Part shown: piece by piece, positions 17,535-24,284 of the stretch
How positions within the stretch are numbered: the stretch's first letter is position 1
Layout: every line of letters begins with the position of its first letter
Made by a program: the position numbers and the translations under genes
The notes under the pieces: model-generated
The model's database searches: none
Seen by the model: the letters and a program-made list of their open reading frames with translations, nothing else
What the model was told of the DNA's origin: nothing
Assembly (NCBI GenBank): GCA_965212015.1
Contig: OZ243037.1
Span: 1,376,001 to 1,440,000 of the forward strand
Source: Cenarchaeum sp.
GTDB lineage: Archaea; Thermoproteota; Nitrososphaeria; Nitrososphaerales; Nitrosopumilaceae
Direction of reading: 5' to 3'
Length of the DNA stretch: 64,000 bases

Positions 17535-18689
17535 GTGGAAAAGGTTTGCGTTCTTGGTGCGGGAAGCACCAAATACGGAAAATTACAAGACAGCATTTCC
17601 GATATAACGGTCCGGGCCTCGATTGACGCAATTCAAAGCGCAGGGATTGATCCCAAGGACATCAAGGCCGGCTATATCTCAAACGTCTTTGGCGTCGCCG
17701 ACAAGCAGGTACACCTGGGACCGGTAATCATGAGCAATCTTGGAATACCGGAGAGGCCCTCGCTGTCCATCGAGTCGGCCTGCGGCAGCGGATCCGTCTC
17801 GTTCAGGGAGGCGTTTGCAAACGTGGCAGCGGGATTCTACGACGTAGTCCTGGTTGCCGGAACAGAAAAGGTGACGCATACCGGAACCGAATGGACCACG
17901 ACTTATTTCTCGTACTGTTCGGATTTCTTTTACGAGGGGCAGGCCGGCGCGTCGTTTCCGGGCCTGTTTGCATCGATGGCCAGGGCGTACCTGTCGGAGT
18001 TTGACGCCACCGAGGAGGATTTTGCAAGGGTGGCAGTAAAAAACCACGAAAACGGGCTGCTCAACCCAAAGGCGCACCTGCGCAAAAAGATCACAGTCGA
18101 CGACGTGATGAATTCTGCGACAGTCGCAAGCCCGCTCAAGCTTTATGACTGCTGCCCGTTTTCTGACGGCGCCAGCTCTGTCATCCTGTGCAGCGAAAAG
18201 TTCGCCCGCGAGCACGGCGGCGACTATGTCCGGGTCATCGGCTCCGGAAGGGGAGGATCGCCTGCGGCACTGCAGGATCGCGCCCACATGACTACCATCC
18301 CGAGCACAAAAATAGCGGCGGATGCGGCCTACAAGATGGCAGGAATTACCCCAAAGGATGTAGATTTTGCCGAGGTCCACGACTGCTTTACCATCGCCGA
18401 AATAGTCGACAGCGAGGATTTGGGGTTCTTTGAGAAGGGCAAGGGCGTCGAGGGCGTGCGGGAGGGCCAGACCTCAAGGGACGGCCAGATACCGATCAAC
18501 CCGTCAGGCGGGCTAAAGTCAAAGGGCCATCCGATCGGCGCAACGGGGGTGGGACAGGTAGTCGAGGTTTATGATCAACTGACTGGCAATGCGGGTCAGA
18601 GAACCGTACGGGACGCCAAAGTCGGCCTGACCCACAATTTCGGCGCAACGGGGGCCAGCTGCGCGGTCCACATCTTTCAGGGAGTGTAA
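17535..18689 (+). CDS. archaeal acetyl-CoA acetyltransferase (thiolase)
   Basis: ESACGSG, AEVHDCF, NPSGGLKSKGHPIGATG. Confidence 0.95.
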   Translation: MEKVCVLGAGSTKYGKLQDSISDITVRASIDAIQSAGIDPKDIKAGYISNVFGVADKQVHLGPVIMSNLGIPERPSLSIESACGSGSVSFREAFANVAAGFYDVVLVAGTEKVTHTGTEWTTTYFSYCSDFFYEGQAGASFPGLFASMARAYLSEFDATEEDFARVAVKNHENGLLNPKAHLRKKITVDDVMNSATVASPLKLYDCCPFSDGASSVILCSEKFAREHGGDYVRVIGSGRGGSPAALQDRAHMTTIPSTKIAADAAYKMAGITPKDVDFAEVHDCFTIAEIVDSEDLGFFEKGKGVEGVREGQTSRDGQIPINPSGGLKSKGHPIGATGVGQVVEVYDQLTGNAGQRTVRDAKVGLTHNFGATGASCAVHIFQGV

Positions 18690-18690
18690 A

Positions 18691-19056
18691 ATGTCCGGCA
18701 AGCAAGAGTTTGTAAAACAGGCCAAGGAGGGAAACGTCCTTGCGCACAAGTGCGCAAAGTGCGGCAACCTCTGCCTGTCTACTGTCTATTTCTGCCAGAA
18801 ATGCGGCGCCAGGGACTTTGAGGATGCCGTATTCAAGGGGACCGGGACGGTGGCCACATACACGATAATCACGGTTCCGCCGGCAGGGTTTGAAGAGCAT
18901 ACGCCATATGCCTGGGTGGTGCTCAACCTGGACGGCTCCAAGCTGCGGGTGTCCGGATTCATGGCCGGAATCGCAAGCCCGGACGATCTCTTGGTCGGCT
19001 CGCCTGCCAGAATAACCGGCTTTGACGAGCGCGGGATCCTGCTAGAAAAGCGCTAA
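18691..19056 (+). CDS. DUF35 Zn-ribbon/OB-fold thiolase partner
   Basis: CAKC...CQKC, GTVATYT, PYAWVVL; directly after the thiolase. Confidence 0.93.
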   Translation: MSGKQEFVKQAKEGNVLAHKCAKCGNLCLSTVYFCQKCGARDFEDAVFKGTGTVATYTIITVPPAGFEEHTPYAWVVLNLDGSKLRVSGFMAGIASPDDLLVGSPARITGFDERGILLEKR

Positions 19057-19124: not shown

Positions 19125-19286
19125 ATGTCCGTGGATGTCACGTGTGGTAAGTGCGGTGAAAAGATTACCACGATGAAAATGCTAAAGCCACTCAAGGACG
19201 TGCTGAATCCATACAACGGAAAGTGTCCGTCGTGCGGGCAGGCGCTGTCGACATCCGAATTCTCGCTAGATGTCGACGAGAACTGA
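19125..19286 (+). CDS. small zinc-ribbon protein (53 aa)
   Basis: MSVDVTCGKCGEKI...GKCPSCGQAL...; TTTATTTA box upstream; below the track cutoff. Confidence 0.8.
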   Translation: MSVDVTCGKCGEKITTMKMLKPLKDVLNPYNGKCPSCGQALSTSEFSLDVDEN

Positions 19287-19350
19287 TCGTAATCTGCGAT
19301 AAACGTTCTAGTCACAAGTCTTATTTAGCTCTTTTTTTTACACATGGATC

Positions 19351-21441
19351 ATGGAGCTTAGCGAGGACATCGAGGAGCCAAAGAGGGACGGCATCCTGCA
19401 GTCCACGTCAAAGCGCGTGCGGATGATCTTTTCTGTAATGGCAAGCCCCAACAGGATTGACATACTCCGGATCCTCAACTCAAAGGGCCCGCTGACCTAT
19501 TCTGAGCTAAAGTCGCTGGCCGGATTCAAGTCAAAAAAGGAGAGCGGCAAGTTTGCCTATCACCTGAGAAAGCTGCTAAGGCAGTCCCTGGTGGCGCTAA
19601 ACAAGTCCGAGCGCCGCTATACCATAACCAACCTTGGAAAGCTGGTTCTGAGCCTCGCCCGGCAGATCGAGGAGCGGTCGATAATCGAGAGCGGCAAGAT
19701 GTACGTGAGGACGTCGCACGAGTCAATCGAAGAGTTCAACTCGCACAAGATAATCCAGTCCCTGGTAAGGGAGGGAAGCCTTCCCCTGGAGCTGGCCCAA
19801 AAGATCACAGAGGAGGTCGAAAACCGCATCTACAAGTACCAGACCACCTACCTGACCGGATCCCTGATACGGGAGATGGTCAATTCCGTCCTGCTCGAGC
19901 ACGGCCACGAGGAGTACCGCAACAAGCTCGTGCGGCTGGGACTGCCAGTATACGACGTCCTGGAGATGATGTCAAACGTGGACATTGTAAACAACGGGGC
20001 AGAGGGCATACTATCCAGGACCGGACAGGCGATATTCTCAGAAAACCTGCTCACAAACATGCTGCCAAAGGACGTGGCGGACTCTCACCTGTCAGGCGAC
20101 TTGCACATAACGAACCCGGGAATCTGGTCGCTATTGCCGGACATTTTGTTTGTCAACATCAAGGAGCTAATCGAGGACGGCCTTGATCTTGGCGGCAAGT
20201 TCCTTGACGTTTCCAGATTAAAGTCAGTAAAGACGCTTGACGACCTGTCAGTCGCCATATCGATGATAATGTCGCTCATCTCAAAGGAGGCCTCACAGGA
20301 GATAGTGTTCAGCGGAATTGCGCAGCTGTTATCCAAGCACTCAAAAAACATACCCGAGCTTGTAACAAAGGTTACCAACGCGTTCATATCTGCGTCGACT
20401 GCATCAAAGTACAACAAGGATCCCACGCTGATCTCATTCGTGCTGCAGATGGGCACGGATACAAAAACAAACAATGCGGTAATCGAGGCGTACAAGAACT
20501 ATGTAAGAATAACGCCGCTGCCCAGCATCGGCCTGGTAATTGATCACACAAAGACGAAAATCTCTGATGTCTCTGCTGAGCTTTCCGAGATAATTGCGCT
20601 GGGCGGAAGAATAATCATCGGCAAAAAGACAATGTCCAACCGCGCAATAATTCCCAGCACGACAAAGAGCTCCACGCTGTCGATAAACCTGCAGTCCATA
20701 TCGATAAACCTGCCAAGACTTGCATTCGAGTCAAACAAGGACGAGACATACTTTAGGGCAAGGCTTGCCCTGCTGATGAAGCCGGCGATATCGTCGATGG
20801 GGCTGAGAAAAAAAGAGATTGCCGATTTGACAAGGCGCGGACTCAATCCAATCCTTGCAAAAAACACGCAATACATGCAGCGCGGCTCGATCACACTTGT
20901 TCTGAATCTCACCGGGTTGCGCGAGGCAATCTTTAACATACTTGGCTATACCGAAAACAAGGCCGGCCGCGACGTGCTCTACAAGGTAGTCGAGACTGCA
21001 ATCGATGTCGCAAAAAAGAAGGGCAAGGAGATCGGCGACGACGTGAAAATCTGCATGACCGAAAGCGACGGCTCTACCAGGTTTGCAACCATGGACGGCG
21101 AAAAATACGGCAAGAACTCTGTACTGAAAACAATAGAGTCGGACTCTTATTCTGACGGGATGACACTAGATGCCGCAGACGTCGCCGGCCTTACGGCAAA
21201 AAGCGATCAGATTACAGAATGCAACAGGCTGGCCAAGACCCTCAACGGGGGCCTCTTGGTGAGCCTAAAGATAGGCAGGGAGCTTGGCGCAGGCGACATC
21301 AAAAAGGCCATAGAAAAGACCGCCGATCTCGTAGGATCCTTCAGGCCGGTCCAGCAGGTTCCGATCTGCGGCGGATGCGGCTTTAAGGACGAGACGCTCT
21401 CTGAAAAGTGCCCAAGGTGCAAATCCCCGTATATCATCTGA
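19351..21441 (+). CDS. ArsR-type wHTH + ATP-cone + degenerate class III RNR (NrdD-like) fusion
   Basis: wHTH (NRIDILRIL...FAYHLRKL), ATP cone (YVRTS...EEFNSHKIIQSL), NrdD motifs HLSGDLHI, SINLPRLA, TGLREA, RFATMDGEKYG and a terminal CxxC/CxxC; no glycyl-radical loop. Confidence 0.85.
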   Translation: MELSEDIEEPKRDGILQSTSKRVRMIFSVMASPNRIDILRILNSKGPLTYSELKSLAGFKSKKESGKFAYHLRKLLRQSLVALNKSERRYTITNLGKLVLSLARQIEERSIIESGKMYVRTSHESIEEFNSHKIIQSLVREGSLPLELAQKITEEVENRIYKYQTTYLTGSLIREMVNSVLLEHGHEEYRNKLVRLGLPVYDVLEMMSNVDIVNNGAEGILSRTGQAIFSENLLTNMLPKDVADSHLSGDLHITNPGIWSLLPDILFVNIKELIEDGLDLGGKFLDVSRLKSVKTLDDLSVAISMIMSLISKEASQEIVFSGIAQLLSKHSKNIPELVTKVTNAFISASTASKYNKDPTLISFVLQMGTDTKTNNAVIEAYKNYVRITPLPSIGLVIDHTKTKISDVSAELSEIIALGGRIIIGKKTMSNRAIIPSTTKSSTLSINLQSISINLPRLAFESNKDETYFRARLALLMKPAISSMGLRKKEIADLTRRGLNPILAKNTQYMQRGSITLVLNLTGLREAIFNILGYTENKAGRDVLYKVVETAIDVAKKKGKEIGDDVKICMTESDGSTRFATMDGEKYGKNSVLKTIESDSYSDGMTLDAADVAGLTAKSDQITECNRLAKTLNGGLLVSLKIGRELGAGDIKKAIEKTADLVGSFRPVQQVPICGGCGFKDETLSEKCPRCKSPYII

Positions 21442-21635
21442 AATTCGAAAATTTTGAGCTGTTTTCGATGCGGCCACCACCGTCGGCGTGACTTTATTCA
21501 GATCTACCGGGACGGATCAATCCACCGGTATGACGTTCATAATAGCGGTGTCAATATTTTTGAACCCCGACGGACAGATTTTTTGTAGAATCATTTATAC
21601 GCATATTCATTTTACTAATTTTGAGGACATTATAA

Positions 21636-24284
21636 TTGGACAATTCCACCATAGAATCGACTATCGGCGAGATCAGAAAGCGAAACGGCAAGGTAGACAG
21701 CTTTAACATCGACAAGATCTCAAATGCCATATTCAAGGCCCTGTCTGCCACCTCCAAGGCAGATCGCGATCTGGCAGAAAACCTTGCAAGGGGCGTGGCC
21801 ACAAAGCTCATGGAGCAGGGGTTTTCGGCCTCAAGGCAGCCCAGCGTGGAGAACATTCAGGACATGGTCGAGATTACCCTGATTGAAAACGGCCACGGCG
21901 AGATTGCAAAGGCGTACATTCTGTACCGAAACGAGCGCAGCATGGTCCGCGACGAAAAGATGAGGGTCCTCAACTCCCAGAGCCTGGATCCGGTCGCAAA
22001 GTTCTTTGATCTCAACTGCCTGCGCGTTTTGGCATCCAGATACCTTCTCAGGAACAACAAAAACGAGATCACAGAGAGCCCCAGCCAGATGTTTGAGCGC
22101 GTGGCGATCCTGATCGGCATCGGGGATCTGCTGTATGACGGCGAGATATTCGACAGGGACGGCCGCTCAAAGCAGGACGAGGAAGTGGCCAAAAAATACC
22201 TTGAAAAACTCGACAGTTTTGACTACAAATTCAAGATAGGCGACTATTACCTGAACAAGTACCACCTCAGATCCCTTGTCAACCATTATGTCGCCCTGGC
22301 AGACAAGGGGCAGATAAAAATCGGCTTTAAGGACCTGCTGACAAAGATAGCCGGAAAACAGTTCAACAGGTATGCAGATAAAATCAAGGAGTATTACGAG
22401 TTAATGACATCACAGGACTTTCTTCCAAACTCGCCCACAATGATGAACGCAGGCGGAAGGCTGGGACAGCTGTCTGCGTGCTTTGTGCTTGACATGCCAG
22501 ATGACATGGAGGCAATCATGAAGTCGACGTCAGACGCCGCGCTGATCTTCAAGTCCGGCGGCGGCGTGGGAATAAACTATTCAGACCTGCGCCAAGAGGG
22601 CGACATTGTCGCCTCCACGTCCGGCGTGGCATCCGGCCCCGTCTCGTTTATGAACATTATCAATACCGTGACTGAGGTCGTAAAACAGGGCGGCAAAAGG
22701 AGGGGCGCCAACATGGGAATCATCGAGGCGTGGCATCCCGACGTGGAAAAATTCATCACAAACAAGACGGAATCCGGCGTGCTGGAAAACTTTAACGTCA
22801 GCGTCGGAATCTGGGAGGATTTCTGGAACTCGCTTGTCAACTCTAAAGACGGCAAATACATGCTCAGAAGCACGCGCGAGCGCACTCCCGTGCGCGAAAT
22901 CAATGCGCACCAGCTAATCGACCTCATTGCGCTGTCCGCGTGGAAGAGCGCAGAGCCGGGGCTCATATTCTTTGATCAGATAAACAAGTACAACGTTTTT
23001 GCAAAGGCAAGAGGCGGGCCGCTGCGCGCGACGAACCCGTGCGGGGAGCAGAGCCTGTACCCGTACGAGTCGTGCAACCTGGGATCAATCAATCTTGCCA
23101 ACCTTGTAAAGCGAAAGGCAGACGGCGAGTACGAGTTTGACTGGCAGAGATACGAGGAGACGATTAGAAAGACCACCAGGTTCCTTGACAGCGTAATTGA
23201 CGTGAATCTCTATCCGGTAAAAGAGATAAACACCGCCTCCAAGGATTCCAGGAGAATCGGACTGGGGGTCATGGGCGTGGCGGATCTATTATACAAGCTG
23301 AGAATTCCGTACAACTCCAAGGAGGGCTATGAGCTACAGTCCAAGCTTGCCGAGGCCCTTACCTACTATTCCATGGAGGAGAGCGTGGCCCTGGCAAAGT
23401 CTCGGGGCGAGTTTCCGCTGTGCTCAAAGACAGAGTATCCGGAGGGCAGGATTCCCGTCGCGGGATACTATGAAAGGCCAAAGGACGAGCACACGTACGA
23501 CTGGGACGCACTCATTGACAAGATAAAAATACACGGAATCCGGAACGTCCTGACGACCACGGTGGCCCCCACGGGAACACTCTCGATGCTTGCCGACTGT
23601 TCCAACGGCATGGAGCCCACGTTTGCGCTGGTCTTTGAAAAGCGCGTAACTGTCGGGCGGTTCTTTTACACCAACAAGATAATAGAGCAGGTACTGCGCG
23701 ACAACGGGCTGTACGACAAAAAGATACTCGAAACGATTGCAGACAATTACGGATCCCTCCGGGGCCTTGAGGAGATTCCCGAATGGATGCAGAACATCTT
23801 TGTGACGGCGATGGACATACACTGGTCTGACCACCTCATGGCGCAGGCCGTATGGCAGGAATGGATCGGCAATGCTATAGCAAAGACAATCAACATGCCG
23901 TATGACGTCTCTGCTGACGACGTAAAGGCGGCATACCTGCTGGCCCACGAGATGGGCCTCAAGGGAATCACGGTATACCGCGACGGCTCGAGGCACAAGC
24001 AGGTGCTGCACATGACCAGTGAGAATGCAGAAAAGTCCTTTGACGTCGTGCCAAGCGACTATCTTGTACAATACGTAGAGGGGAACATACACAACACGTA
24101 CATAAAGTCCCAGGTTGACGCGGCGCTGAGCTTCAAGGCGTCTGACAAGCCGCAGATGGAGCAGAACATCTCTGAGGAGGAGACAGAAAAAACACTGTGT
24201 CCCAACTGCAAAAACAAGCTGGTCTTTGTGGAGGGGTGCAGCATATGCATAGACTGCGGCTTTAGCGGATGCACGTCCGGATAG
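21636..24284 (+). CDS. nrdJ: adenosylcobalamin-dependent (class II) ribonucleotide reductase with ATP cone
   Basis: PNSPTMMN, SACFV, TNPCGEQ, CNLGS, APTGT, KGITVYRDGSR, C-terminal Zn ribbon. Confidence 0.95.
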   Translation: MDNSTIESTIGEIRKRNGKVDSFNIDKISNAIFKALSATSKADRDLAENLARGVATKLMEQGFSASRQPSVENIQDMVEITLIENGHGEIAKAYILYRNERSMVRDEKMRVLNSQSLDPVAKFFDLNCLRVLASRYLLRNNKNEITESPSQMFERVAILIGIGDLLYDGEIFDRDGRSKQDEEVAKKYLEKLDSFDYKFKIGDYYLNKYHLRSLVNHYVALADKGQIKIGFKDLLTKIAGKQFNRYADKIKEYYELMTSQDFLPNSPTMMNAGGRLGQLSACFVLDMPDDMEAIMKSTSDAALIFKSGGGVGINYSDLRQEGDIVASTSGVASGPVSFMNIINTVTEVVKQGGKRRGANMGIIEAWHPDVEKFITNKTESGVLENFNVSVGIWEDFWNSLVNSKDGKYMLRSTRERTPVREINAHQLIDLIALSAWKSAEPGLIFFDQINKYNVFAKARGGPLRATNPCGEQSLYPYESCNLGSINLANLVKRKADGEYEFDWQRYEETIRKTTRFLDSVIDVNLYPVKEINTASKDSRRIGLGVMGVADLLYKLRIPYNSKEGYELQSKLAEALTYYSMEESVALAKSRGEFPLCSKTEYPEGRIPVAGYYERPKDEHTYDWDALIDKIKIHGIRNVLTTTVAPTGTLSMLADCSNGMEPTFALVFEKRVTVGRFFYTNKIIEQVLRDNGLYDKKILETIADNYGSLRGLEEIPEWMQNIFVTAMDIHWSDHLMAQAVWQEWIGNAIAKTINMPYDVSADDVKAAYLLAHEMGLKGITVYRDGSRHKQVLHMTSENAEKSFDVVPSDYLVQYVEGNIHNTYIKSQVDAALSFKASDKPQMEQNISEEETEKTLCPNCKNKLVFVEGCSICIDCGFSGCTSG

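Follow-up and report, generated by a model that had tools for sequence, protein, structure and literature searches.

The closest described systems to the gene analysed here are regulators built on inactive enzyme folds, the class III ribonucleotide reductase (RNR) NrdD and the bacterial RNR-specific repressor NrdR. The gene lies at positions 19351–21441 of a 64,000-nucleotide stretch of Cenarchaeum sp. (assembly GCA_965212015.1, contig OZ243037.1, positions 1,376,001–1,440,000; hereafter the window), directly upstream of nrdJ, which encodes a class II RNR, and its product joins a winged helix-turn-helix (wHTH) domain and an ATP-cone to an NrdD-like body. In PurR of B. subtilis, which is phosphoribosyltransferase-like, and in the aminotransferase-like MocR/GabR proteins, an inactive enzyme fold is combined with a (winged) helix-turn-helix domain. 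NrdD has an N-terminal ATP-cone, a thiyl-radical cysteine and a second active-site cysteine, a Cys4 zinc ribbon and a glycyl-radical domain, and is served by an activase. NrdR consists of an N-terminal zinc ribbon and an ATP-cone in about 150 residues and is encoded beside RNR genes; PMC9110341 describes it as rare in archaea and its boxes as overlapping the start site.

The candidate regulator resembles NrdR in combining an ATP-cone with a DNA-binding module and in being encoded beside RNR genes, and presumably also in that the adenine-nucleotide state would govern DNA binding at RNR promoters. Homology to NrdR is confined to the cone; the DNA-binding module is a winged helix instead of a zinc ribbon, the chain is 696 residues long and includes a whole dead RNR body, and the candidate site lies upstream of a putative TATA box. 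With NrdD it shares ancestry and fold, the N-terminal cone, the Cys4 ribbon and a predicted dimer on the same helices, but it lacks both catalytic cysteines, the glycyl-radical domain and an activase, carries an additional wHTH and does not conserve the effector contacts of the specificity site. As in PurR and MocR/GabR, a DNA-binding domain would here be joined to a noncatalytic, enzyme-derived sensor or scaffold in a regulator of the same pathway, with the differences that the donor enzyme is an RNR and that a separate cone, presumably nucleotide-sensing, is present. Our search of the open-access literature found no description of this family or of an RNR-derived regulator. On balance, we favour the view that the protein acts as a dimer to control transcription of the RNR gene in response to nucleotides, in the manner of NrdR though with a different construction.

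Architecture and loss of radical chemistry

An earlier interpretation of the locus made from the nucleotide letters (the sequence-only reading) had proposed the order wHTH, ATP-cone and NrdD-like barrel, and this architecture is borne out by Pfam and by the presence of every motif that it quoted. Residues 26–100 match HTH_20 with 32.6 bits (cut-off 27) and DUF7347 with 40.9 bits, the cone scores 35.1 bits over residues 117–189 (cut-off 25.8) and NRDD scores 85.2 bits over residues 399–692 (cut-off 26.2). The quoted motifs are HLSGDLHI (residues 246–253), PDIL (263–266), MSNRAI (428–433), SINLPRLA (450–457), TGLREA (521–526), RFATMDGEKYG (577–587), NGG (632–634) and CGGC...CPRC (673–690). The protein falls far short of equivalog status as an NrdD, with 81.6 bits against a cut-off of 326.35 for TIGR02487 and lower scores for five other NrdD equivalogs (NCBIfam). 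HTH_20 connects the N-terminus with the ArsR/SmtB group, for which the subfamily model NF033788 gives 24.2 bits (cut-off 55); DUF7347, an archaeal family, matches best, and no metal-sensing role is indicated.

The relationship to NrdD was analysed by hhalign, a six-sequence L-INS-i alignment and motif-anchored counts, with a family profile and an AlphaFold input alignment of 100 diverse members. The profile aligns with E. coli NrdD over 512 columns with a probability of 99.84% (E = 3.8e-30). The AlphaFold model has a pLDDT of 92.7 and a pTM of 0.87 (pLDDT 49.5 when 15 close orthologues are supplied), and Foldseek matches it to the class III RNRs of S. thermophilus (9dca, E = 1.9e-20), T. maritima (4col, E = 1.3e-18) and phage T4 (1hk8, E = 1.1e-14), with 8p2s also among the class III matches, which range overall from 1e-20 to 1e-13; class I enzymes rank lower, at about 1e-7. 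The sequence-only reading had suggested the T4 and Thermotoga enzymes for such a superposition. Since the profile alignment and the matches to solved structures agree, the likeness to NrdD goes beyond chance. A phmmer search of the protein against PDB sequences returned no match, and a 15-sequence profile gave weak matches.

The chain contains six cysteines (residues 568, 624, 673, 676, 687 and 690). Residues 1–567 have none, hence there is none after the HxxGDxHI segment or in the finger loop, and neither catalytic cysteine can be present. In the alignment, the second active-site cysteine (Cys175 in E. coli, Cys79 in T4) is replaced by Ile265 and the thiyl-radical finger loop (Cys384 in E. 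coli, Cys290 in T4) by the cysteine-free KTMSNRAII. The zinc ribbon aligns with the Zn site of E. coli NrdD, and none of its four cysteines varies among 15 orthologues. Six residues past the last of them the chain stops, where E. coli NrdD runs on to RVCGY, and the RxxGY glycyl-radical tail (Gly681 in E. coli) is absent. The losses noted in the sequence-only reading are thus confirmed. In a motif-anchored count over 99 other representatives of the family, a cysteine occurs near the Cys175 position in three of 57 and at the canonical spot in none, the finger-loop stretch contains some cysteine in 13 of 76 and the GCR context in one, and the Cys4 ribbon is found in 73 of 99. Tails of at least 25 residues are present in 33 representatives, two of which match [RK]xxG[YF].

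The partners of a class III enzyme are missing as well. The genome is a single contig of 1.76 Mb and is 99.74% complete. The absence of NrdG, first remarked for the window, extends to the whole genome, in which no protein exceeds the cut-off (best score 32.5 against 126 for TIGR02491 and 51.9 against 131 for TIGR02495, NrdG2). Profile searches of the genome detected no Gly_radical domain, no second NRDD match and no NrdR (TIGR00244, positive in nine of 14 control genomes). ATP-cones occur in the regulator gene and in the adjacent nrdJ only. NrdJ is intact (TIGR02504, 713 bits against a cut-off of 400), as the sequence-only reading held; it gives the single match in the genome to the class I/II barrel PF02867, over positions 1–523 of 523, and is the only RNR of the genome.

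That the protein should still be a class III RNR, relying on a glycyl-radical subunit supplied in trans and on an activase that has escaped recognition, is very improbable. It does retain the fold, zinc ribbon and several motifs of NrdD, and elsewhere in the genome a 237-residue radical-SAM protein scores weakly with activase models (51.7 bits for NrdG2), but neither catalytic position carries a cysteine, the genome lacks a Gly_radical domain, and the radical-SAM protein scores best as QueE and is under every cut-off. The NrdG2 search itself is effective, as it exceeded the cut-off in four of four genomes in which a canonical nrdD stands beside a family member. With both catalytic cysteines, the glycyl-radical tail and the activase missing, the conclusion that the protein is catalytically dead and not an enzyme is well supported.

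Loss of activity has not been followed by decay. The 15 orthologues compared are 73–83% identical overall; taken pair by pair, they reach 100% identity in the wHTH and 98.9% in the cone, with 70–87% for the barrel and 75% for the zinc ribbon. The dN/dS ratio is 0.000–0.031 for residues 26–200 and 0.026–0.135 for the barrel in nine of ten close pairs, the tenth being saturated. In the 100 diverse members, columns conserved at 80% or more number 31 of 92 in the cone, 13 of 83 in the wHTH and none of 150 in the middle of the barrel, and the GKFAYHLRKL helix of the wHTH is nearly invariant. The idea of a functionless nrdD relic could appeal to the lost catalytic residues and tail and to one relative with a split copy, but with dN/dS between 0.00 and 0.14, a homologue in all but one of the 61 genomes of its taxonomic family and members in many other families it is hardly credible. 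Strong purifying selection on the protein, strongest at the N-terminus, is well supported.

The likely source of the body can be seen in relatives that still carry a working nrdD beside the family member. In the six-sequence alignment, the canonical nrdD neighbours keep the equivalents of Cys175 and Cys384 as well as SRITGY or SRVVGY, whereas the wHTH paralogues beside them have Glu at the Cys175 position and, in a tail that persists, SRVSAK or SRSSAK, in which Gly is replaced by Ala; one such paralogue still carries the finger-loop cysteine. One canonical NrdD neighbour shares the unusual cone of the family (VRTS...YLSAPLIRE...TRLGLPV). The sequences fit an origin by duplication of an nrdD of that subclass, presumably followed by fusion to a wHTH and then by a stepwise decay that would have ended, in the ammonia oxidisers, with loss of the tail. 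Elsewhere in the genome (G000:C1:915684–915977, outside the window) a 97-residue stand-alone wHTH paralogue is about 41% identical to residues 20–115 and has GKFEFHVKKL where the regulator has GKFAYHLRKL, which suggests that the fused wHTH came from a family of small archaeal regulators.

Cone and barrel

In the RNR cones treated in PMC12662201, the nucleotide is contacted by the hairpin residues Lys9/Arg10 (Lys19/Arg20 in StNrdD), Lys21 and Ile22 of helix 1, His59 of helix 3 (Gln79 in StNrdD) and Lys91 of helix 4 (Arg105 in StNrdD), and the cones mediate oligomerisation. We aligned the cone of the regulator with those of NrdJ, E. coli NrdD, NrdA and NrdR. Most contact positions are highly conserved in the family: Lys/Arg133 in 98% of members, Ile134 in 99%, Thr169 in 93%, Tyr189 in 88%, Arg190 in 90% and Arg195 in 96%. 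The departure from the RNR pattern is at the hairpin (see below).

The barrel presents a different picture. According to PMC12662201, the base of the specificity effector of class III enzymes is contacted at the dimer interface by two residues, Gln114 and Glu181 of T4 NrdD. These correspond to Met305 and Ala351 in the regulator and are not conserved across the family, so that the dead barrel appears to be a poor candidate for a deoxynucleoside triphosphate (dNTP) sensor in this lineage. The proposal of the sequence-only reading, a dead enzyme reused as a nucleotide sensor, therefore holds in its first part and is weakened in its second as far as the barrel is concerned; from the alignments, the cone, which is the most conserved domain, looks like the better candidate sensor.

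A barrel homodimer is predicted through helices 297–313 and 339–354 with a score of 0.82 (best of three controls, 0.00); three runs agreed in at least 91% of contacts, with a partner pLDDT of at least 84. In calibration the mark used was reached by 20 of 30 same-chain pairs and by one of 23 single chains, and the pass of the predicted dimer may simply reflect likeness to solved NrdD dimers.

Gene neighbourhood and candidate operator

The 194-nt gap between the regulator stop codon and nrdJ noted in the sequence-only reading is part of a conserved arrangement. In the taxonomic family, a homologue of the regulator is present in 60 of 61 genomes, including all 52 with a completeness of 90% or more; the sole genome without one is 73% complete. 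At all 29 loci with enough flanking sequence, the next gene downstream is nrdJ, on the same strand and after a gap of 194–328 nt (a thirtieth locus is cut by a contig end). The order of the two genes recurs in one genome from another family of this order of archaea, where the protein is 53% identical. The close homologues, labelled at source as Nitrosopumilus or Nitrosarchaeum proteins, bear the names 'anaerobic ribonucleoside-triphosphate reductase', 'helix-turn-helix domain-containing protein' and 'ArsR family regulator'; the suspicion that the first of these is a mis-annotation is supported.

At greater distance, a representative library yielded 1124 clusters at E ≤ 1e-3 and 169 at E ≤ 1e-30, one long form being a protein named 'hypothetical' from a Bathyarchaeota metagenome-assembled genome. 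Of 401 genomes of the phylum searched with a profile, 351 gave matches at E ≤ 1e-10; the weaker ones may be ordinary NrdD, and among the 150 matches listed the alignment covers essentially the whole profile, wHTH included. The regulator-type family spans many taxonomic families. Neighbours were examined at the loci of the best 30 matches, 21 of them from other families; these 21 loci are mutually related and were picked by score, and their counts therefore represent neither an independent nor a random sample. A class III nrdD lies downstream in seven of the 21, sometimes after a short glutaredoxin-type open reading frame (ORF; families f35 and f41), and a class I/II RNR gene (f4) in four, three recognised by Pfam and one by tblastn only. 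An RNR gene is downstream in five of the ten families examined, counting the family of this organism and its sister. Adjacency thus involves three classes of RNR gene, and a link between the regulator gene and RNR genes is well supported.

The remaining distant neighbours are of several kinds. pyrB or pyrI (aspartate carbamoyltransferase), which constitute another nucleotide-synthesis locus, lie on the opposite strand, tail to tail, at four of the 21 loci, from four distant lineages (L051, L059, L060 and L062). The RNase P RNA gene is directly downstream at five, all of one lineage, recognised by Rfam (RF00373, 212 bits) at two (L053, 3774–4084; L065, 119–415) and by eye from the same GC-rich sequence at L054, L058 and L073. 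A phosphoglucose isomerase gene is the neighbour at one.

Adjacent genes often encode interacting proteins, and here both proteins carry ATP-cones, the domains that mediate oligomerisation in RNRs (PMC12662201). The regulator might accordingly act on protein, using its winged helix for protein contacts, as a regulatory partner or scaffold for NrdJ or the replication machinery. We regard this as improbable: the wHTH matches families of DNA-binding domains and does not vary among 15 orthologues, and each change of RNR between lineages (NrdD, NrdJ, class I/II enzymes) would have required a change of partner.

Alignment of the 29 orthologous gaps revealed, beyond the region of the stop codon, only two conserved stretches: the nrdJ promoter and a 47-nt block with two palindromes (Table 1). 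The block extends from about 75 to about 30 nt upstream of the putative nrdJ TATA box, with its centre about 40–60 nt upstream. Scanned over the 1.76-Mb genome with a position weight matrix (PWM), the element scores 53.0 bits and the next site 18.3, which makes it unique in this genome. It stands out against a different base composition, because the genome is about 51% G+C and the intergenic sequence of most aligned relatives is much more A+T-rich. An RNA element in the gap was considered and rejected, with no Rfam match at E values up to 1 and a fold z-score of −1.17. Sites upstream of the TATA box fit an activator somewhat better than a repressor in archaea, and the position of the element tips our estimate of its effect on nrdJ very slightly towards activation.

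Lesser matches to the element call for brief mention. The 18.3-bit site is inside an ORF, a full-length match of 17.4 bits lies between two integrase genes, and a half-motif match of 19.7 bits at the start of a cdc6/orc1 ORF is not an outlier. The two genes flanking the 17.4-bit look-alike are back-to-back members of the phage integrase family (G000:C1:316767–319677) and probably represent a mobile element, and the match is probably due to chance. The 14-nt sequence GTGTCAATATTTTT at window positions 21548–21561 recurs without change in a distant archaeon (L056), where it lies about 105–120 nt past the stop codon of the regulator gene, ahead of the glutaredoxin/nrdD genes; this identity may be fortuitous.

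As for other features of the locus, the nrdJ start codon appears to be TTG here and in most orthologous loci and ATG in some. Upstream of the regulator gene, the thiolase and ChsH2/DUF35-type genes form a pair that is syntenic in relatives, and the zinc-ribbon ORF of 53 residues that lies between this pair and the regulator can be aligned across nearly all of the 30 upstream regions compared and matches no Pfam family over cut-off.

Table 1. Coordinates and basis of features at the regulator–nrdJ locus (positions in the window)
Feature	Position	Strand	Remarks and basis
Thiolase gene	17535–18689	+	
ChsH2/DUF35-type zinc-ribbon/OB-fold gene	18691–19056	+	
Zinc-ribbon ORF	19125–19286	+	53 aa, double CxxC
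Putative regulator-gene promoter GTCACAAGTCTTATTTA	19311–19327	+	About 25 nt before ATG; conserved columns in 30 upstream regions; promoter reading inferred
Regulator-candidate gene	19351–21441	+	696 aa; wHTH, ATP-cone and dead NrdD-like body; ORF, translation, Pfam, AlphaFold model
wHTH domain, ArsR-like/DUF7347 type	19426–19674	+	Residues 26–108; Pfam
ATP-cone-like domain	19699–19950	+	Residues 117–200; variant hairpin V-R-T-S for V-x-K-R; Pfam and cone alignment
NrdD-like alpha/beta barrel body	19987–21330	+	Residues 213–660; catalytic residues absent; hhalign, Foldseek
C-terminal Cys4 zinc ribbon	21367–21420	+	Cys673, Cys676, Cys687, Cys690; translation, alignment with E. coli NrdD Zn site
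Conserved 47-nt element, candidate operator	21520–21566	.	In the gap before nrdJ; 29 aligned orthologous gaps
Palindrome TATGAnnTTCATA	21529–21541		Within the 47-nt element; flanks CACCG (21523–21527) and CGGTG (21546–21550)
Second, imperfect palindrome	21550–21565		Within the 47-nt element; GTCAA-N5-TTGA type
Putative nrdJ TATA box TTTATA	21594–21599	+	Conserved columns in 29-locus alignment; archaeal TATA reading inferred
Shine–Dalgarno-like GAGGAC of nrdJ	21623–21628	+	Conserved columns in 29-locus alignment
nrdJ start codon TTG	21636	+	29-locus alignment
nrdJ, adenosylcobalamin-dependent class II RNR	21636–24284	+	Own N-terminal ATP-cone; Pfam, NCBIfam

Proposed function and significance

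The mechanism that we propose for a dimeric, nucleotide-responsive regulator is as follows. A duplicate of nrdD would have gained an N-terminal winged helix and lost its radical chemistry, including, in the present lineage, the entire glycyl-radical tail. The barrel would have been retained as a dimerisation scaffold, and the dimer would position two winged-helix domains on a palindrome that precedes the RNR gene, nrdJ in this case. The cone adjoining the DNA-binding domain would bind an adenine nucleotide and thereby alter DNA binding or assembly, such that RNR transcription would track the nucleotide pool.

Several observations weigh against this proposal. The first concerns the cone, whose hairpin reads Val119-Arg120-Thr121-Ser122, with Arg-Thr-Ser in place of the phosphate-contacting Lys-Arg pair. 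Thr121 is Arg in 16 of 100 members, the hairpin of E. coli NrdR reads V-V-K-S at the same place, its Lys-Ser being close to the Arg/Thr-Ser of the regulator, and the variant also occurs in an apparently functional NrdD of another archaeon. A nucleotide site in the cone is plausible but, because the Lys-Arg pair is altered, not assured. The second concerns the DNA. That the 47-nt element is the binding site of this protein is a guess from its position; the PWM found no second convincing site in the genome, including the region before the regulator's own gene, and did not find the element in one genome of the sister family or at the 21 distant loci. In addition, the neighbour is not an RNR gene at ten of those 21 loci, and in one relative (G001:C1:1756004–1758075) of the same family the gene is split into two overlapping pieces with an in-frame TGA, for which either a genuine pseudogene or an error of assembly may be responsible.

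Much of this would suit a DNA-binding regulator that neither senses nucleotides nor is specific for RNR genes, in which cone and barrel form an oligomerisation scaffold and the adjacency to nrdJ is inherited synteny. The altered hairpin, the nonconserved specificity-site residues, the distant loci that lack an RNR neighbour and the failure of the PWM to define a regulon all agree with it. It is nevertheless unlikely in our judgement, since no other domain of the family is as conserved as the cone, which keeps most of its nucleotide-contact positions, and since an RNR neighbour persists while its class changes between nrdJ, nrdD and class I/II enzymes, which is hard to explain by inertia alone. 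The nucleotide-responsive regulator of the RNR gene therefore remains our preferred interpretation.

A broader proposal, to which we give slightly less than an even chance, is that a widespread archaeal family, arisen from duplication of nrdD and fusion of a winged helix, is the main regulator of dNTP supply, reading ATP/dATP through its variant cone and controlling the RNR class on which each lineage relies, namely nrdJ in the aerobic ammonia oxidisers and nrdD in their anaerobic relatives. The family offers a clear path from an enzyme to a regulator of its own pathway, with intermediate forms still beside a working nrdD. It also exposes a systematic database error, as homologues labelled as anaerobic reductases could make aerobes seem to own an anaerobic RNR.

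The control of RNR transcription in archaea is largely unknown. Ammonia-oxidising archaea are among the most abundant microbes of ocean and soil and have a single, B12-dependent RNR. If the proposed function is correct, the family would hold the place that NrdR has in bacteria and would provide the first example of a transcription factor derived from a ribonucleotide reductase, and a dedicated nucleotide-sensing regulator would link DNA-precursor supply, the use of B12 and growth in the ammonia oxidisers.

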